NCBI GenBank assembly: GCA_958009085.1
Contig: OY253676.1
Location: 496,001 to 560,000 of the forward strand
DNA from: Protoeuglena noctilucae
Taxonomy: Eukaryota
Direction of reading: 5' to 3'
Length of the DNA stretch: 64,000 nt
The notes beneath the pieces are model-generated. The model was not told where the DNA came from. It saw nothing but the letters and a program-made list of their open reading frames with translations, and ran no database searches. The translations under genes and the position numbers were made by a program. Of the stretch, positions 40,114 to 50,197 are shown piece by piece. Within the stretch, counting starts at the first letter, position 1; each line of letters begins with the position of its first letter.

Positions 40114-42409
40114 TCACCACTCTCTTCCTCCTAGGCGGGTTGCCAGGGGATGACCTCGATATCCACAGTCAGCACGACTCCGTTCCCGTGCATCTCCCGC
40201 TCCAGCGCCTCCATCCCCACTGCCAGCTGCCTCAGGCCGTCGGCCGCTGCGACAGGCCACACGCGAGAGGATGACCGCCCCAGCGCCACATAGCAGGGCT
40301 ACAACTAGCACAGGCAGGGTGCCAACACTGGCACTGCGCCCACCTGATGCTTCTCGCTTGTATCCCACTTGGAACTCCGCATTTGAGATGGCCGGGAGCC
40401 GTGACGGGGCAGCGAGAGGGGGCCGCCTGCCCCTTCCGCCCAACGTGAACCGACGGGGCCACTGACTGGCCCCTTCGGGAAGCGTCCCCATGGAAAGCAG
40501 CACATCAAGGGACCCCTCCACATGTTGCCGCTCCGGCAGGCCGCCTGCCTCCTCCGCCTCCTCCTCGCTGCTCAGGTCACCCCCCGTCATTGCCTGGAAG
40601 CGCTTTCGGGTCATCTCCACCAGGGCGCCGGCCATGGCCTTGGGGGTGGTCGCGAGACCCCACAGCCCGTACGCCGCCGAGTCGCTGGTGAGGTCCCGCA
40701 GATGGACACCGACCTGGGATTTGGACGCCAGAAGCGATGCGTCGAGCGCCACAGCCGCCCCATGGATCGCCGGGTGACGTGCGGTACACGCTAGTCGGTA
40801 CACACCAGCCGCACGGCCATCGCCCTGACCCAGGCCAAGCATGCTGCTCGCTCACCTGTCCAAGCCTCGGGCAGCCTCCGAGCTCCCTGACCAAAGCGGC
40901 GTCCACCTCGGGGCAGTACCGCACGTCGATGGCTCGCACGGTGTCCCTGAACGCACCATCGAGGGCTCCTTCCAGAGCATCGCCAGCCATGGAGCGCACG
41001 CCGACGGCCTTGAGGTCCTGGAGAGCCGGGCAGCATGCCAGGGCACGCGCAAAGGTGGGGCTGCACCCGAGAGGCGAGTTGGGGCTGCACCCGTGCCAAG
41101 AGACGTCGAGGGCCGTGAGGCGGGGCCCGAACGCCCGCAGCACGCACAGCAGGCCCTGGTCCGAGAGCCAGCTTCCGGTGCTGCGGTGGTGCAGCCCCGG
41201 GGGCCCCAGTGGCGCTTTAGCTGACAGGTCGAGGTGGGTGACGTCTGGGAAGCACGCAGCGAGCGCTTTGAGAGCCTTGGCGTATCCCGTCATCAGCACC
41301 CTGGGCGCACAGCCTCGCTGGGATGTATCGACGACCGTCTCGTCAACGTGGGTCGCCGCCTGGTCGATGCCTGCAGTCTGCGGCTCCATCTCTGCAGCCG
41401 CTTCCGCAGCTTGAGCCGCTTTGCCCAGTGATACCTCCTCCTCTTGGCAGTGCATGGCGAGGTCGTCGTCAGAGGGAAGCAGGCGCATGATCTCTGGGAG
41501 GGCTCCTCCCAGCTTGAGAGAACGACAGATGACCCCGCAGGCTGGCCCGCGGGTCTCGCCCCTGGCCTTTGCGTGCGTGGAGATCTCCTCAGACAGGAGC
41601 AGGCACATCCCTGCGAGAGAGACGGGAGAGCCAGGTGTGAAAGTGGCAGGGAAAGGGTCGGGCAGTGGAGCAGGGCGGCAGCAGGGTGGCAGGCAGGGAA
41701 GGCGATGGCTCACTTGCGCCGTCTCGCGGGTGTGCCTCGATGATGGCGTCCAGGTCCAGCGACTCCATCTGCAAGCGATGTCGAGGCAAGGCGTCCGATG
41801 GCAAACCATGCCCGGTGCGCACTGACGCACCCCTTTGGCCACATGGGGTCCCTGAAGTTACGTCTGGGTCTGATCCATGGCAGGGCTGTTGGCTAGCTCA
41901 TCCCTCACCTTGCTGGCGAGGAGAGGGCGGGCTGTAGCCGCCCATCCCTTGCACACGTGCACAGTGCGCGCCAACGATGCCGCATCCAGCTGGCCCAGGA
42001 TCATGTCCAGGAGTGGCTGGCCGGGCGACAGCAACTCGGCCCAGTCCGCGGGCGCAGGCAGTGGCGCGGGAGCGGACGCCAGGGCGCTGCCTGCGGGCGC
42101 TCCCTGCCGGGGTGCCGGGCGCAGCCCCCCGCCCTTCCTGCGCTTGGCTCGCGTCGCGTACGGTGAAGGCTTCGCTTCCGGCTTTATGCTTGCTTCCATC
42201 GCTTCCGCATCCTGCTGCTGCTGGCGCTTCCGTCGCAGGAACTCCGCATGCACCATCTCCGTGATGTCCTCAGGGCCCAGCTGGGCCCAGGTGCGGCGCT
42301 GTACGATGCCCCAATCCCACAGCGCGCCGAATCCCTCCTGATAGACGTATCCAGCGCCTTCCTGGGTCGCCAGGTCGCCTTCCGGGCCGGCATCGGCCAC
42401 GGCAGCCAT
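40114..42409 (-). CDS. F-box / leucine-rich-repeat protein
   Basis: F-box-like WAELL..LLDMILGQLDAASLARTVHVCKGW; LRR-like VTHLDLS, LTALDVSW, CPALQDL, VRAIDVRYCPEV; 3' end uncertain. Confidence 0.65.
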
Positions 42410-42767
42410 GGGCAAGTGCTAAGCGCGACTGCGCGGTTTCCACGGACTACGACACCAATCTATGCCAGGTCCAGGCAACTTTATGTAACGAAGAATCTCA
42501 CTATGATTGAATATCGATCAAAGGGCGTTTCTGTGCGCGAAACAGACGGTTGCCCTAATCGTGCAAGTAGTGGATTGACAGAGGGACCAAAGACCCAAGT
42601 CTCCATCGATCCAATAACATACCATTTAGTAAAGACTGCCCTGCTTACCCTTCCCGGAAATCGCTGCGTGGACAGTGCGTTCAGGTCACACCTACACGAG
42701 CTCGACGGCTGCCCCCTTTCTCCCTCTGGACCTGCCCTTTTCTGCAGCGGTCAATCCTGCGCCACCC

Positions 42768-45700
42768 ATGAGAGTCGTGAGCCTCTTTTCGGGATGCGGG
42801 GGGCTCGACCTCGGCCTCCAACTCGCCGGGCACGAGATTATCCTGCAGGTGCCGTGGCCTCCATGCCAAGCGCCCGATGTCCTCCCCTCGAGCGCATTCG
42901 GAGCGATTCGCCCCATTTCAAATGACATCACATCATTATCTATCCAGTTGTACCCCTCGCGCAATGCGAGAACGATCCGGACGCGCAAGCGGTCCTGCGA
43001 GACCGCTTCCCAACTGTCCCCCTCGTCCCCGACGTCAGGCACCTCCTCGAGCTGCCCAGGGAGACAGAGATCGTCGCGGCGGGATTTCCATGCATCGACG
43101 TGTCCAGGTGCGGCGCTGCCGCCTCCCTCCGATCCCTGCCTGGGGCCCGCCTTGGCACAGCGGCGTTGGCGGCTGCTGGGCCTGACCCTCCCGCTCCCAC
43201 CTGGCCCCAGGAACGGCAACCGCCAGGGCGTCTCCGGACCCGACACAGGTAAGTCGACACCATGTGATATTCACAATGGTGTCGGAGTGTAGCCGTCAAG
43301 TGCACCCGAGCAGGTCTTCCAAGCGTGGGAAAGCAAGAAGACCCCGCCTGCCCGCTGCATCATGCAGGACTCGTGCAGCACGTTTTGCGGCTGGTGCGTC
43401 GGGCGGCGGAGGACCACCGGCCCGTTCCTTGGCTCCTGTTTGAGAACGTGCTTGGCCTGACCGACATGCCCACCCACGACGGGGGCATGGTCGAGCCCCC
43501 CGCGGTGCAGCGGCTCGTCTCGGAGATCGAGGCTATCGGATACGGCACGTGGGCGCACCGGTGAGGATCGCACAGGGCCTGCGCTTGCATGCCCCTGCTG
43601 TACGCGGCCATGCTCGCGGCATGGTCCTTTGTGGCCCCCACGTAGGGTGCTATCGACGCAATCCTTCGGCATCCCGCACCGCCGGAAGCGCATCTTCCTG
43701 CTGGCGGCGTGGCACGCCGATGCTCGGGACGTGCTGCTTTGCCAGGGCACCCGGGAGTGCGACGGGCTGTGCAAGCGATACGTGAGTGAAGAATGCGGGG
43801 CATGGGGCAGCCCAGTAAGGTATGGTCTGTACAGGGACCTTGCTGCCGTGGCTCCCGCAGCTCCTCCAGCTCCCCCAGCCCATGGGCTGATGAAGCAACA
43901 TGTGGCGTTCTGTCTTGCAGGGTGGTCCGTGCTGGAGGTGCTATGCGGGCCTGTCCCTAGACGCCTTACAGCGGTCGCTGGATGAGCAGATCACAGAGAG
44001 GGCCACGCTGGCCCGGGAGGCGCGCTTCGCCAAGCGACACCGTGCGGCCACTCAAGGCACCGAGGCGGCACCAGTTGTGGATGCGCCCAGGGTGGCGGAC
44101 AAGGTGGCAAGGGAGGAAGGTGCGAGGTGGATCGCATGTCGACTTTCATCACAGTATTTTCCATAGACCAAGCGTCGCATCCACGGCAGCTTTGGCAATC
44201 ACACCCGCAGGCCCTGAGTGCGCGAGCGAGAACCCAGCGACGCAGGAGGCCCCAAGCAACCCTGAGCTGACTGCCGCCCCTCTTGAGCGGGCGGCGGCCG
44301 TCGATGTCGACCCGCCTGGCACCCCAGCCACGCCGCCGCCACAGCCACCGCGCCGAAAGACGTCTGCCAAGCCGTCAGCCAAGCGCAAGATGCCTGCGCT
44401 CCACGATGCCGCAAAACACGCCGTCCCGCCCGAGACCCCGCCCACTCTGCCCGCCACTCCAAGCACCCCCGTCCAGCCGCCCTCGGCCGCCCAGCCGCAG
44501 CCGCAGCCTTCGTTCGCTGCCGCACCTGCCACAGACCCTCGCATGCCCGCGCTGGCATTCGACCTGGGGGAGGCACGGTCGGAGCCCGTGCGGGACATGA
44601 TCCCGAGCCTGACCACGTCCAACCGCTCCATCGTGGTGGCACTCCCTACGGGGAAGTTTGGGTTCCTGCGCCTCACCGACGCAGAGCGACTGCAGGGGCT
44701 GCCTGAGGTGAGTGGTTGGCAGCTGTGAATAGACAGCTTAGAGGCTGGCGGTAGGGGTCACTTACCAGCGCTCTGCATTGCAGAGGGTGACTGGCTGGAT
44801 ACAAGCATGCGTGCGAGTCCCATTGTGGGCGCAACCGCAGGGATGGACCCGACCGGCGCTGGGGAGCCGTGCGACGGACACCGAGGCTGAGGACAACCGC
44901 GGACGCCTGTGGGTCATGATTGGCAACGCCGTGACGGTGAGGGGATGCTACTAGTCGCCTGCTGATACCCGCGTCAGTCTGACGCAGCCCAGGCTTGGCG
45001 TATCTGAGTAACCATGGGGTTAGGCTGTCTCACTAGCGGTCTGGTGTCGATGTCTGCGCAGGTGGACGTCGCTTCGTGGATCGGGGAGCGCCTCATGCAG
45101 CCCCACATGTGAGATACGCTGGAACTGTGCATAGACATGCTGCACAGACAATGGACAGTCCAGCTGATGGCATAGCCATGTAAGCCCTACCCCTGACATC
45201 ATTTGCAGCCACAAGTACGCCTCGTTCGGGCCAGACGACATGCTGCTGCACCCGAGGTTCCAAGAGACAGTGCGGCTGGCGGCCTCCTTGCCTGTGGACC
45301 CGAGAGGCGCGCAGGCGGCCCCGCTGTGGCGCGCAGACGAGCTCGACGCCAGGAAGCTGGGCGGGGAAGGCATGCTGCGGTCCTGGCCCGATGCAGGTGA
45401 ACGCCGCTCAGCGACAACCCACCGAATGCAAATGAGTGTGACACCCCCCCAAGATGCTCCCAAGCCGTGCTCAACTATGGTTGCTTGTGTCTCGCAGCGT
45501 GGTATGTGAAGGGCGTGGGGAGGTACAGCACCCACGCCAGCGACGCCCCCCTCCCGGTGCCCTTCACGCCGCTCTCCGAGTTCATCACCGAGACGGGCCT
45601 CATGCCCGACCAAGGCCGGGTGCACCTCTACCTCGCCAGGCTCGCCGCCAGCACCCTCCAGTGAGCGCGCCCTTGGTCTTCTGTGCTGAGCAGTGTTTTT

Positions 45701-47131
45701 GGTTGCCAACATTGCTGTGGGGTGCTCTGCTGTCTCATACCCTGCCACGCCAATGCCGCCCACTCAACGCGCCCTCACCAACAGCAGATGGCCATGTCTA
45801 TCAAGCTTGTACGTCATGCCTCTGGTGCTGATGGACTCCACCGTTGCTGGTCCCCGCAGCGCCCAGAGAATGAGGCACATCGTCGAGGCCTTCCTTCGCG
45901 CGGGGGCCAACATCCATGAGGCCGTCACAGCCCAGGTCTCTGGGATGGCGCCCCTGGTGCCCGAGGCAGCGGGCAAGCGCCGGGTGAGCGGGGAGTGGGG
46001 CGACGGGAGACGTGGCTGGGTGCTACGGGTGTGCCGACAGCGCCAGTGGTAAAGATGGCTGGGCGCTTAGCAGACGAGTGCACGCTCACTGTGCACACTC
46101 CGGTCGTCCCTCGGTGTGCAGGGGACGGACCTGGCCGCTGCGCCGTGGATGTCAGGGTCGACCGCGCAGGCGTGCAAGCGGTGCGAGAGCTGCGTTGCGA
46201 AGAACAACCGGAGGCGAGTGGCGTGCGTTGAGGGGACACTTACTGACGCGGTCAATGGCGTTGTATACAACAGTCTGTCCTCGCCCCGGCGTCGCAGGTG
46301 CTTCATGGTGCGTGTGGGCCTGGCCGCCAGGGCAGGGCACCACGGCGCGCAGCTGGCGGCGTACGGGGAGGACTGCATCGGGGCAGTCATCGAAGTCTAT
46401 TGGCCCCTTGATGAGCGGTGCTACCGGGGGAGGATCGTATGGTTCAACCCCTTCACGGTGCAGCACGTCGGTGAGGGCCGGTTGCTGTGACGACTCTGCG
46501 CTCACGGCGGGGGACTAAAAGGGCTCATGACTGTTACTGTGCGGTACAAGAGCACCACCGGGTGGTGTTTCGTTAGATCTGGACTACCTCACTGGCCAGT
46601 CACAACGGTACCCCACCTTGCGACACTTGCATGTCCCTGGACTGCGGGGCCTGCCGTGACTCAGCGAGGGTCGCGCCCGTGCAGTGCTGTATGAGGACGG
46701 GGACGTGGAGAACCTGCACCTCTGGACGGCCAACCAGACGATCGTGCTGTGCTCGCGCCCGGACGAGTGGGCCGGGGAGCGCCAGCGGCTCGCCAGGCGA
46801 GGCGTGCTGCGCTCGCAGGGAGGGGCACCGGAGCGAACGATGGAGCCGGAGCTGGCACTAGAGGCATCCTCTGTCGACATGAGTATTGTTCACAGCTTGG
46901 CAGATGCTGCCTGGTACATCAGGGCACACCCACCCGTGCCTCACAGCGATCGACGGTGTCAGAGACGAGGACTGCTCTCTTGTTAAGCGCGCAGGGACCC
47001 GCTGGCAAGGAAGCTCATGAACGTGGAGGCATCGAATCCTGCCAGGGGCCGCGTCACCCGCGGGGCACAGGGGGCGGCGGTGGGCAGCACGAGCGCGGAG
47101 TGAGACGGGAAGGGAAGGGCGCGTAAGATGA
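42768..47131 (+). CDS. DNA (cytosine-5)-methyltransferase with C-terminal CxxCxxC zinc motif and Tudor-like domain, about 14 introns
   Basis: Motif I SLFSGCGG, IV GFPC, VI FENV, VIII PHRRKRIF, IX LRLTDAERLQGLP, X IGNAV; then CKRCESC-x8-C and IEVYWPLDERCYRGRI..H..LYEDGDVENL; last exon uncertain. Confidence 0.88.
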
Positions 47132-47368
47132 GAAGGGCGCGTGACAGTGATGGGTGTGGTGCGAGGCAGGAAGCTAGCTGAGACCTGTCGATACATGATT
47201 TTGTGCAGGCAGCCCTGTATGGCTCGATTAAGTCGAGGAGTTTGAAACCTGGTCACCGTCTGTACGACAGCATGAAACATGTCCCCTATCAAATATGCTA
47301 CTTCTATTGCTTCTCCTATCTGAGCCTACAACACACCGCTGGATCCCCCGGGAGCTTCCACAGCACTG

Positions 47369-47526
47369 TCACCGCACCGCAGGGCATGCCTGGATGGCCC
47401 CTCGCTACCGCACCGCTGGGCATGCCTCACTCGTACCTCGTCACCGCAGCTCTGGGCACGCCCTTTCCTCTCCAGGTATCACCGCAGCCCTGGGCATGCC
47501 TCGCCCTCTCCAGGCATCACCGCAGC
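47369..47526. repeat. Degenerate 36-38 bp minisatellite, about 4.3 copies
   Basis: Core TCACCGCA(C/G)C(G/C/T)C(A/T)GGGCA(T/C)GCC at 47369, 47405, 47441 and 47479; partial copy at 47517. Confidence 0.85.
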
Positions 47527-50197
47527 AATTGGAATGCCCCTGCTTTGTTGACGGGGTCCCATGGCCACACGCGGTGCTTGACGCGCTTCTCGTGCCCCCG
47601 CACCTCCAGCATGATCTGCGCCCCGCAGAAGAAGGTGGCCAGCGCAGGGACGAGGAGCCTGCGAGGGCGACAGGCGGCTCACGTCTGTTGTTGACGGATG
47701 CCGGTCGACACGGCGTGCACCAGTACAACACGCATGACTCGTGACTGGGGATGATTGGGACTGCCAATCAGGGTATTAGAGTCCTCTCTGTTCCCGTGCT
47801 CGCATGTGAGCCACAGGTACTACCTTGGTACTAAAGGCCCTTTCCTCGCCAGTCACCTGATCCCCGCGGCGGTGAACAGCGAGCCGAGGAGCATCCGGAG
47901 GCCCTCCCCACCGAAACAGAACCCGGCGGCGTTGGCTGCGACCAGGACCACGATGTTGACGGCCCCGAACGACGCCTGGAACCATCGGCTGCGCCTGCGA
48001 GGGTCACACGAAGCCAGGCTGCGACTCTGCACTCTGCGCTAAGAAACCCTGTCCCACGCCGCATCGCCTGTCCAGTTGCCCCGCATTGCCCCTGGCGCTT
48101 CCAGCCGCTGCCACTTCGCATACATCGCTGCGAGTGGGCGTGTGTCGTGTACGCCTCCGAGAGCTTAGCCATACCTGAGGGATGGGTACCCCGTCTTGTC
48201 CCACTTGTCCCGCAGGAACCCGAGGTGCGTGAGAGCCACCTCGGGGAGCATGGCCGCTGCCATGATGCCAGCCCACACGAGCAGGTGCGTGACGATGCGC
48301 CAGTCGGCCTCGTGCCACACGGCGACGAACACAAAGACGACGGGCACGGCCAGCGCCCGGCGCACGTTGCCGCCCAGCGGGACGTACAGGTACCGCACCA
48401 GCCACTGGTAGAAGGACGTGTGCCACTCCCGCCAGAAACCCTGCAGGACACAGGTACTATGAGTAGGTGATAGGGAGGGAGGCGATGCGCAAACGACGGC
48501 ATCACCAGCGTTCCGCACCTGTCCTGCGCTTCCACCACACCCACCGCTCATCTCACCTGCACGCTCATGTTGTTGCAGATGCACCGCCGCATGTTCTCAG
48601 GCGCGGGGATGCCGTCCAGGAGGGCAAAGAAACGGAAGAATCGCCAGAAGGAGAGGAACTTGAGCCAAAGGAAGACCAGGTAGGCGAAGCTGATGCAGGC
48701 GAGCTGGTGCACGGGGAGGCGAGAGAGGTCGACGTGACGACGACCCTGCGGTGGGTACGGGAGCCAAGCAGGGTTGGTATAGGAGAGGGTTGGTCTAGAA
48801 GAAACACTTGCGAGGTCGAAGTCGTGCCGGGATGACCCGGAACATGGCCATACCGTGGCTGGCACGCAGAGGTTACGCATGGGGGGCATAGCTGGCCGCC
48901 CTGAGCTGTGCGCTGTGTGACTGTGCAGATATGGGTGCCAATCTAGCCCTGGCTGCCACTCTGCCTCTCCATTCCTGCACTTCGCAGCATGCAGCGTCAC
49001 CTGGGCGGTGAGGAAGTCGAGGTAGTTGAAGTGCAGGAGAAACTCGACACAGAAGATGCCCAGGCAGGCGCGAAAGGCGTACTGTGCCAGGAAGCGCCCC
49101 GGCAGCATGGGCGGGGGGTGCTTGCGCGCCGCGGCGAAGTTGTCGAACGTCACGATGGGCCCCGCGATGTACAGCGGAGGGTAGCAGAGGTACTCCAGGT
49201 AAGCCCCGAGAGTGTAGGCGGTGAGCGGGAGGGTGCTGACCCTGCGGCCCGCGCCGCCCCCGTCCCGCTGCGCACCGTCGCCCTCCGCCGCGGGGCCCTG
49301 CGTCAAGGGCAGCCCCGGGCCTCGCCGCTCGCGTCGCCTCGCGTCGGTCATGTCGATGGCGAAGGATATGAGGCGCAAGGCGGAGATGTTGAAGCACACG
49401 TCCCATCGCAGGTCGCCGCCGAACGAGTCGAGCGGTCCGGCGAGCCAGCGGGGCAGGAGGGCGGCGGAGAAGCCCTGGTGGATGCGGATGAGGTAGAGCA
49501 TGGCGAGGTTGAGAGCCCACACGAAGGGCCCGGCGGGGGCGGCGTCAGGCAAAAACGCAGCTGCAAGGTAGTAAGCCACAGAGGCCGCGAGGAAGAACAG
49601 GGCCCGCGCCCCGTGGGCCTTTGCCAGGAAGGCGAGGCCGGCCACGACCATGAGGGGCCGGTGGAGGCGGGGCAGCACGCGCTGGGTGGCGCGGCTCAGG
49701 ACGGCCGCGGCCAGGAAGGCCGGGGCGAGGAGTGGGAGGGAGTCTCGGAAGGAGGACCACTGGGGGTTGGACCTGTCGACCCATCGACCGACCTCGGCGC
49801 CGGGGATCGTGGGGTCCGTGAGGCCAAGGGCGTTGGTGTGCTCGTACTCCGGGCCCCAGTAGCCTATTAGCTTCATGAGGGTGACCATGAATCGCGTCTG
49901 CGCCCGCATGACTCCCGTCACGGCGACCACCGCCCAGCCGGGCAGCCACCCTGTGCGGACGAGGCATGCGGCGTGGGGTGGGCGGGTGTTGACGGGACAT
50001 TGCGGGAGCCAGGACGGATGCTCGGTCTGTCGTGTGCGCGGGGAGGGGCCCAGCGGCTGGCACTCACCGGGCTTCAAATAGTGGTCGGGCCAGGAGAAGA
50101 GGAGGTAGTTCTGGGAGGCGCCCGCGACGATGGTGTGGCACCACAGGACCATGAACGCCGCCACGACAACCCACAGGACGTGTTCGAGTCGCGGCAT
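47517..50197 (-). CDS. GUP1: MBOAT membrane-bound O-acyltransferase, GUP1/HHAT-like
   Basis: DRSNPQWSSFR, LRLISFAID, YPPLYIAGPIVTFDNF, WLKFLSFWRFFR..ENMRRCICNN, FWREWHTSF..RYLYVPLGG, FVAVWHE. Confidence 0.9.

Follow-up and report, generated by a model that had tools for sequence, protein, structure and literature searches.

Green algae possess a lineage of DNA methyltransferases (DNMTs), the ChloroDNMTs, which has been described as distinct in chlorophytes and charophytes and which "often contains a PWWP domain" (Mol Biol Evol 2025 msaf176, PMC12344493). Supplementary Table 1 of that study counts ChloroDNMTs in Klebsormidium, Dunaliella, Coccomyxa, Chlorella (C. vulgaris), Ulva, Caulerpa, Nephroselmis, Ostreococcus, Micromonas, Mesotaenium, and Spirogloea, and none in Chlamydomonas, Volvox, and Prasinoderma. 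In Ostreococcus tauri, a ChloroDNMT is the only DNMT counted there. As early as 2012, Ostreococcus methylases with a C-terminal PWWP domain were reported to be related to bacterial enzymes and to proteins of Micromonas and Chlorella (BMC Evol Biol, PMC3457860). The words "Tudor" and "CXXC" are absent from the main text of PMC12344493 and from the supplement examined, and a full-text search for "ChloroDNMT" returned only msaf176 and its preprint. Here we describe a gene of this kind located at positions 42768-47103 on the + strand of a 64,000-nucleotide stretch of Protoeuglena noctilucae DNA (GCA_958009085.1, contig OY253676.1, positions 496,001 to 560,000), referred to as the window. Judged by its sequence, the gene is a new PWWP-less member of the named, functionally uncharacterised ChloroDNMT family. 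The observations as a whole are best explained by an expressed nuclear green-algal ChloroDNMT gene of bacterial origin that has gained chromatin modules and would act by a mechanism guided by histone H3 monomethylated at lysine 4 (H3K4me1). We assign this reading a probability of about 0.72.

Since the gene is a PWWP-less member of an already named family, its novelty is modest, and the locus itself adds one further member. New here are a near-universal CXXC-Tudor module, residues like those of the Arabidopsis protein RDM15, a eukaryote-specific four-Cys insertion, and a C-terminal domain shared with bacteria. A 2011 review of eukaryotic DNA methylation systems by Iyer, Abhiman, and Aravind may have described the architecture before.

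Catalytic core and family relationships

The spliced model comprises 16 exons and 15 introns with an open frame of about 781 codons. Its ATG at 42768 runs straight into motif I (FSGCGG, from residue 7); an in-frame stop is located at 42630-42632 and no in-frame ATG was found upstream. Motif I is followed by motifs II (QCENDP), IV (GFPCIDVS), VI (ENV), VIII (FGIPHRRKR), and X (GNAV), and motif IX (DAERLQGLPEGWT) is situated after the target-recognition region. The features of PF00145, i.e. FxGxG of motif I, Pro-Cys of motif IV, ENV of motif VI, RxR of motif VIII, and GNAV of motif X, are present in this order. The Pfam model DNA_methylase was matched by single-frame read-throughs of exons 1, 2, and 5 (E 2.6e-4, 2.3e-3, and 0.15). 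Among 76 alignment columns conserved to at least 90%, the window protein keeps 67, and most of the changes are conservative or fall within the missing PWWP domain. Beyond the region of intron 1 the protein looks to be under constraint. Plastid targeting was rejected as motif I is too near the N-terminus to leave room for a transit peptide.

Among sequences of the PDB, a profile of the family scored best on M.HaeIII (about 1e-16) and M.HhaI (1.2e-16), followed by DNMT2 (3e-7), DNMT3A (8e-5), and DNMT1 (2.5e-4). Membership in DNMT1, DNMT3, or DNMT2 was rejected on account of these weak scores. A full-length structural model of the family member P0040 (663 amino acids; predicted local distance difference test, pLDDT, 86.1) had its best fold matches in M.HaeIII and M.HhaI, with DNMT2, DNMT3, and DNMT1 close behind, and Foldseek with the whole model returned methylases only. 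The nearest non-algal relatives in a profile search of 5.8 billion proteins were bacterial enzymes of about 400 amino acids with 38-44% identity and about 300 bits. The named bacterial relatives among the matches listed were four Myxococcota or "Deltaproteobacteria" and one Eisenbacteria.

Two regions outside the motifs are common to the family and these bacterial enzymes, each in 15 out of 15 bacterial rows listed. The first is a block past motif VIII (ASLHGDPRDVLL). The second is a domain after motif X of the form "WPxAAW..G.GR...P...L..FL", which in the window reads "WPDAAW...GVGRY...PF.PLSEF". A Cys cluster after motif VIII, C-x5-CDGLC-x6-CWRC (C-x5-C-x3-C-x6-C-x2-C), spans intron 5. Four Cys columns are invariant or nearly so in 8 of 8 relatives and are kept in at least 90% of 62 relatives in a larger alignment. 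This four-Cys cluster is found in the window protein and in 12 of 12 eukaryotic rows, and is absent from all 40 bacterial rows listed. Because the bacterial rows share the core and the C-terminal domain without the Cys cluster, the eukaryotic additions comprise the Cys insertion, PWWP, the CXXC unit, and Tudor. We infer that the catalytic core and the C-terminal domain derive from one bacterial Dcm subfamily, and the four-Cys insertion most likely constitutes a zinc site. Between this cluster and the target-recognition region a low-complexity insertion rich in Pro, Ala, and Gln (about 165 amino acids; window 43980-44560, exons 6-7) is retained in spliced RNA. It is far longer than in 9 of 9 relatives aligned; the marine metagenome protein P0002 has a shorter one.

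The first-pass annotation of this sequence had proposed a bacterial-type catalytic domain starting at residue 1, with motifs in prokaryotic order, no N-terminal regulatory region, and a Cys cluster (CDGLC..CWRC) after motif VIII. All of these features agree with the motif order, the profile ranking, the bacterial next relatives, and the conservation of the Cys columns reported above, and chance falls far short of accounting for them.

In an exhaustive HMMER search of 1.84 billion representatives, exon 4 had only 47 matches at E <= 0.001; the best full-length ones have 660-1160 amino acids and carry the methylase at the extreme N-terminus. The same exon gave no match in a word-index homology search (lengths "longer"). 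In the first 14 relatives scanned by Pfam, DNA_methylase was present in all and PWWP in 6, and the sequences of the relatives showed the same Cys cluster, "WP.AAW" block, and CxxCxxC...C-Tudor ending. Genera among the matches listed for the family profile in the 5.8-billion-protein collection were of Trebouxiophyceae type (Trebouxia, Coccomyxa, Myrmecia, Elliptochloris, Apatococcus, Symbiochloris, Botryococcus, Auxenochlorella, Micractinium, Chlorella, Parachlorella, and Helicosporidium) and of Chlorophyceae type (Tetradesmus, Dunaliella, Haematococcus, and Scenedesmus). Further matches were a pedinophyte, Cymbomonas, and the charophyte Klebsormidium. The published species distribution of ChloroDNMTs agrees with this list. 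Since both the species and the frequent occurrence of PWWP correspond to the published lineage, the family of the window gene can be equated with the ChloroDNMTs.

Architectures were counted in 62 eukaryotic members (alignment A2; Pfam E <= 0.01). DNA_methylase was found in all 62, PWWP in 50, PTM_DIR17_Tudor in 24, and mono-CXXC in 2, with many of the PWWP and Tudor scores lying under Pfam's own cut-offs. PWWP is missing in the window protein, where the bacterial-type domain is followed by the CXXC unit after only about 45 residues, and likewise in P0002 and in P0103 from Pedinophyceae sp. YPF-701. A quick, unrooted IQ-TREE analysis included 60 eukaryotic rows and 30 of the 52 bacterial relatives, with 3 near-duplicate Trebouxia rows omitted. 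One branch parts the eukaryotic from the bacterial rows (Shimodaira-Hasegawa-like approximate likelihood ratio test, SH-aLRT, 100). The window protein groups with P0002 and P0103 (SH-aLRT 99) and is 55% identical to the latter. Separateness from DNMT1, CMT, DNMT3, DRM, DNMT2, DNMT5, and DNMT6 is a published result for the lineage (PMC12344493); the evidence obtained here on this point consists of the ranks of the PDB profile search. This is in line with the earlier suggestion of a system separate from MET1, CMT, and DRM.

Two database entries deviate from the common architecture. In P0030, an isoform from Trebouxia sp. C0005, the CXXC-Tudor end is swapped for an unrelated C-terminus, although its sister isoform P0053 keeps it. 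In P0126 (2173 amino acids) the methylase is joined to a GTPase domain. Both gene models look chimeric or mis-spliced.

The C-terminal CXXC-Tudor module

At its C-terminus the chain carries CKRCESC-x7-C, followed by the helix AARAGHHGAQL and by a Tudor domain (VIEVYWPLDERCYRGRIV...VLYEDGDVENLHLW) that is split by intron 14 (46471-46684). The zinc motif is CxxCxxC-x7-C with its fourth Cys encoded by the first codon of exon 14. The 84-nucleotide intron 13 (46214-46297) is in frame and stop-free; an unspliced reading hence yields a false fourth Cys. Accordingly, the half-CXXC-like motif of the first-pass annotation was retained, but its x8 spacing has to be corrected to x7 after removal of this RNA-supported intron. 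For the CXXC-helix-Tudor module, a profile from which the window protein had been excluded matched this protein at E 2e-39 (127 bits, residues 634-750). It also matched 59 of the 62 eukaryotic members and none of the 52 bacterial relatives.

The Pfam model mono-CXXC (PF15626, "single CXXC unit") was matched by P0123 (3.7e-20) and P0124 (7.5e-13), in both cases just before Tudor and aligned with the CxxCxxC-x7-C of the window protein. Thus, by homology at the family level, the "half-CXXC" probably corresponds to mono-CXXC. The Pfam entry implies that the unit was known to its authors; the term "mono-CXXC" was found in no searchable paper. The classical zf-CXXC domain has two CGxCxxC clusters with eight Cys, whereas the window protein has one four-Cys cluster, and no zf-CXXC was listed in the 62 relatives.

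Among single exons of the CXXC/Tudor region, the sole Pfam match was a weak one of exon 15 to PTM_DIR17_Tudor (E 0.13). The family profile identified 7de9_A in the PDB at 1.4e-14, and a part of P0002 aligns with this structure without gaps (4.6e-10). A model of the C-terminal 105 amino acids of P0040, with three helices and five strands (pLDDT 84, from a six-row alignment), also has its best fold match in 7de9_A. The Foldseek E-value is 9.3e-5, the template modeling (TM) score 0.81, and the root mean square deviation 2.0. The next fold matches were the Tudor domains of SMN, PHF1, and PHF20. The five-stranded barrel was modelled on P0040, and the window protein aligns gap-free over that region. 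The protein Atlas gave no usable match for the C-terminal module.

7DE9 is the Tudor domain of Arabidopsis RDM15 bound to H3K4me1. According to the account of this structure, Trp616, Tyr623, and Tyr641 form the aromatic cage, Asp643 and Asp645 hold the monomethylammonium, and Glu647 and Gln654 hold H3R2 (PMC8184781). The window sequence W-x6-Y-x17-Y-E-D-G-D-V-E provides equivalents of Trp616, Tyr623, Tyr641, Asp643, Asp645, and Glu647 at the same spacing. As six out of seven RDM15 contact residues are kept, H3K4me1-guided methylation seems to be the best mechanistic guess. Profile searches and structure prediction, the check proposed along with the original idea of a Tudor-like domain, thus gave a mono-CXXC unit in family members and an RDM15-like Tudor domain by the family profile, the P0002 alignment, and the P0040 model.

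Gene structure, expression, and competing explanations

A search of public runs detected parts of the locus in 3 metatranscriptome runs and the whole locus in 4 runs of one organism. Three RNA runs and one whole-locus run (X4, library type unstated) were compared with the region 41500-48500. Contigs from marine metatranscriptome RNA are 100% identical to the window, and 11 of the 15 introns are spliced among the joints listed. On the + strand these joints are 43107/43211, 43248/43368, 44119/44211, 44707/44841, 44936/45062, 45108/45209, 45396/45498, 45660/45860, 46213/46298 (GC-AG), 46470/46685, and 46796/46995 (GC-AG). The remaining four junctions were set from canonical sites, phase, and homology. 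Intron 13 and the intron at 46797-46994 are the 2 out of 15 with GC-AG boundaries, both RNA-supported. RNA cover has gaps at 42436-42982 and 45886-46120. The TGA stop at 47101-47103 is supported by RNA. The first-pass annotation had reported about 14 introns and a gene end at 47131; the intron-rich gene stood, but the number of introns and the end had to be revised. In run X3 (RNA), unspliced contigs extend over introns 3 and 10 (43257-43408 and 45379-45555), which may represent pre-mRNA or DNA carry-over.

Exon 1 (42768-42848, +) carries the start codon and motif I and ends with GHEIILQ at the donor cag/GT. It was defined from the sequence, and its encoded N-terminus is almost identical to that of the orthologue P0103. 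Exon 2 (42965-43107), with an inferred start and an RNA-defined end, encodes motifs II, III, and IV including the catalytic Cys. It is followed by the 38-nucleotide linker exon 3 (43211-43248), both joints of which lie within one RNA contig. Exon 4 (43368-43560) contains motifs V-VII including ENV; its 5' joint is given by RNA, its 3' end by a GT site and homology. Exon 5 (43646-43781) encodes motif VIII together with CDGLC, which holds the leading Cys pair of the four-Cys insertion. Its joints are not among the RNA joints listed, and its boundaries are canonical GT/AG sites continuous with homologues. Exon 6 (43921-44119), placed by the RNA joint 44119/44211 and by alignment, contains the other Cys pair (CWRC) and leads into the window-specific low-complexity insertion. 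According to the alignment, exon 7 (44211-44707) comprises the Pro/Ala-rich insertion of about 165 amino acids, the target-recognition region (AFDLGEARS...TTSN), and motif IX (DAERLQGLPE); RNA contigs span 44209-44705 plus both joints. Motif X is encoded by exon 8 (44841-44936) and the subsequent helix WIGERLMQPH by exon 9 (45062-45108), each with both joints from RNA.

The "WPDAAW...GVGRY...PF..L.EF" domain is encoded by exons 10 (45209-45396) and 11 (45498-45660), separated by intron 10 (45397-45497), with joints in two RNA runs. Exon 12 (45860-45935) is the last exon linked to the methylase by RNA (joint 45660/45860). Its donor is inferred, with an alternative at 45984, and alignment scores do not separate the short (45935) from the long (45983) form. 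Exon 13 (46122-46213) encodes CKRCESC, which supplies Cys 1 to 3 of the single CXXC unit, and has a GC donor (joint 46213/46298). Exon 14 (46298-46470) contributes the fourth Cys, the helix, and the first Tudor strands VIEVYWPLDERCYRGRIV with the cage Trp and a Tyr. Exon 15 (46685-46796, GC donor) encodes the remaining Tudor part LYEDGDVENLHLW, to which the other cage Tyr, the Asp pair, and the Glu belong. Both joints of exons 14 and 15 are supported by RNA. Exon 16 (46995-47103), attached by the GC-AG joint 46796/46995, encodes a short tail and the TGA.

Both flanking genes are spliced and located on the minus strand (CT..AC joints). The divergent upstream neighbour (41500-42418) shows a weak F-box-like match (E 0.002, below the Pfam cut-off). 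Its RNA cover stops about 370 bp before the methylase ATG, a spacing which suggests a shared promoter region. The convergent downstream gene (47235-48445) has a greater contig depth and its 3'-end near the methylase stop; in two frames scanned no Pfam match was found.

A number of observations weigh against an active, H3K4me1-guided ChloroDNMT at this locus. With respect to the module, the read-through of exon 13, intron 13, and exon 14 of the window gave no Pfam match at E <= 1, the mono-CXXC model was reached by only 2 of the 62 relatives, and in the Foldseek search the C-terminal P0040 model matched no solved CXXC structure. The equivalent of Gln654 of RDM15 is Ala in the window protein and the RDM15 residue pattern occurs in only 33 of the 62 relatives; the histone mark that is read may therefore differ. 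The tree was built without other eukaryotic DNMT families, so the separation from these rests on the published tree and the PDB profile scores. Literature searches found no methylome, binding, or activity study of any family member. Exon 1 and the start of exon 2 are without RNA cover, and no listed RNA joint or contig bridges 45886-46120, i.e. the methylase and the CXXC/Tudor exons.

The acceptor of intron 1 (42849-42964) adds to these points. This intron is required by homology. The orthologue reads GHEIILQCENFPDAQAVL across the exon 1/2 junction, and in the window GHEIILQ is encoded by exon 1, CENDPDAQAVL by the sequence starting at 42965. The intron end ...CGCAA/TGC needed for the orthologue-like QCENDP has AA (42963-42964) as acceptor, departing from the AG found at all 14 other acceptors. 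A canonical AG at 42946-42947 would lead to a frameshift, and one at 42969-42970 would keep the frame but remove the Cys-Glu of motif II. The codon of the motif II Glu that binds S-adenosylmethionine (42968-42970) is retained only via the AA acceptor. The intron boundaries do not fit a U12 or AT-AC intron, and this option was rejected. The AA seems to have arisen from a CGCAG acceptor by a G-to-A change. As the canonical alternatives are damaging, this gene copy could be impaired. It might be crippled in the sequenced strain, with cryptic splicing resulting in a frameshift or loss of the Glu and in an inactive or reader-only protein. The whole-locus run X4 carries the same base in a DNA contig, although X4 is possibly the assembly's own data and a base-call error may account for the change. 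Rare non-AG acceptors can be used by splicing. Moreover, the remaining gene is intact, spliced, and expressed, and it has retained the conserved columns mentioned above. On balance we regard a crippled copy as unlikely, though worth serious consideration.

The gap in RNA cover at 45886-46120 bears on another explanation, namely two genes: a standalone Dcm-like methylase that extends up to exon 12, and a small CXXC-Tudor reader of its own that begins with exon 13. A separate transcript for the Tudor exons had been named at the outset as the finding that would overturn the fusion. One RNA contig ends at about 45885 and the next begins at 46121 (calculated from the depth table). Exon 13 has an in-frame Met early on, and a retained intron 12 would bring a stop at 46050-46052. 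However, 59 of the 62 relatives have module and methylase in one polypeptide, including the single-ORF (open reading frame) proteins P0002 and P0040. Exons 12 and 13 agree in phase (0), and their splice sites are the canonical GT and AG. The downstream contig starts exactly at the acceptor, which suits an internal exon rather than a transcription start, and one RNA joint beyond those listed might be the exon 12-exon 13 joint. The missing RNA cover over the gap does not decide for or against a separate transcript. The conserved fusion in the relatives strongly disfavours two genes, and we consider them very improbable. Exons 12 and 13 were joined on the basis of their matching phase (0/0), the canonical splice sites, an uninterrupted reading frame, and the fusion seen in relatives.

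Like DNMT2 and DNMT6, the single-polypeptide ChloroDNMT could also act on RNA instead of DNA. Among the eukaryotic DNMT-like enzymes, several methylate RNA (PMC12344493), and the motifs do not reveal the substrate. Against this, the RNA-linked DNMT2 and DNMT6 are without companion domains according to the same source, whereas the family of the window gene has PWWP, CXXC, and Tudor. In addition, the profile favours M.HhaI and M.HaeIII over DNMT2 by about nine orders of magnitude. We consider an RNA substrate very improbable.

A recent bacterial or giant-virus insertion, or contamination, is exceedingly improbable: the catalytic domain is bacterial-like and eukaryotes frequently contain orphan DNMTs derived from viruses (PMC12344493), but the gene has 15 spliceosomal introns, 11 of them spliced in RNA among the joints listed, a G+C content in keeping with that of the surrounding window (63-75% throughout), spliced opposite-strand genes on both flanks, and green-algal orthologues that form one side of the tree versus the bacteria. 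The introns, the spliced RNA, and the orthologues throughout the green algae also speak for the domestication of the gene that had been suggested earlier.

Proposed mechanism and relation to known systems

We propose that a bacterial C5-cytosine methyltransferase of a Dcm subfamily entered the green lineage together with its own C-terminal domain. Within this lineage it would have gained the four-Cys insertion after motif VIII as well as the C-terminal chromatin modules, i.e. PWWP in most members, the single CXXC unit, and Tudor. The Tudor domain may dock on H3K4me1 like the RDM15 Tudor, and the single CXXC unit and neighbouring basic regions may contact DNA. Cytosine methylation of the chromatin bound in this way would then be carried out by the N-terminal catalytic domain, without involvement of MET1, CMT, and DRM. 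Enzymatic activity, histone mark, and DNA target are predictions from sequence comparison, as are CpG binding by the single CXXC unit and guidance by histones.

Heavily methylated genomes occur in green algae, e.g. in Chlorella, and ChloroDNMT is a candidate for the enzyme that sets these patterns. Taken together, the module, the RDM15 residues, and the bacterial Dcm core provide a concrete bench-testable hypothesis for the function of the family. One survey found no DNMT3 in MMETSP green algae (PMC9998398). It is tempting to speculate, although this is rather doubtful, that ChloroDNMTs are the green-algal counterpart of DNMT3 with an opposite H3K4 logic, in which Tudor draws the methylase to H3K4me1 and CXXC senses the CpG state. 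If true, chromatin marked by H3K4me1 would be targeted, e.g. gene bodies, by a direct link from H3K4me1 to 5-methylcytosine in a single polypeptide. In that case the CXXC-Tudor pair would be sufficient for targeting by itself, as the PWWP-less clade would demonstrate.

Compared with the described systems, the window gene is closest to the ChloroDNMTs, which are likewise Dcm-like, confined to the green lineage, and found in overlapping species. The window copy and its two nearest relatives differ in being without PWWP. M.HhaI, M.HaeIII, and the enzymes of about 400 amino acids from Myxococcota-like metagenome-assembled genomes have motifs I-X in the same order from residue 1, and the first two are the best PDB matches in sequence and fold. 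The bacterial enzymes of about 400 amino acids share 38-44% identity and the "WPxAAW..." C-terminal domain. In contrast, the bacterial enzymes have no four-Cys insertion and no CXXC, Tudor, or PWWP (0 of 52), and introns occur only in the algal gene.

The predicted reader resembles RDM15 (PDS5C), its best match in sequence and structure, in keeping the cage Trp, Tyr, and Tyr, two Asp, and Glu. RDM15 is a non-enzyme acting via RNA-directed DNA methylation, whereas in the window the Tudor domain is part of the methylase itself. The CXXC unit is like mono-CXXC (PF15626), which P0123 and P0124 match at the corresponding position, and unlike classical zf-CXXC, which has eight Cys and two zinc sites instead of four Cys. 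Animal DNMT3 (PWWP-ADD-methylase) is similar in principle as a de novo methylase steered by histone readers. Its readers are N-terminal and of independent origin, and its catalytic domain scores weakly with our profile (8e-5). The ADD domain of DNMT3 is repelled by H3K4 methylation, and the Tudor domain of the window protein is predicted to be attracted by H3K4me1.

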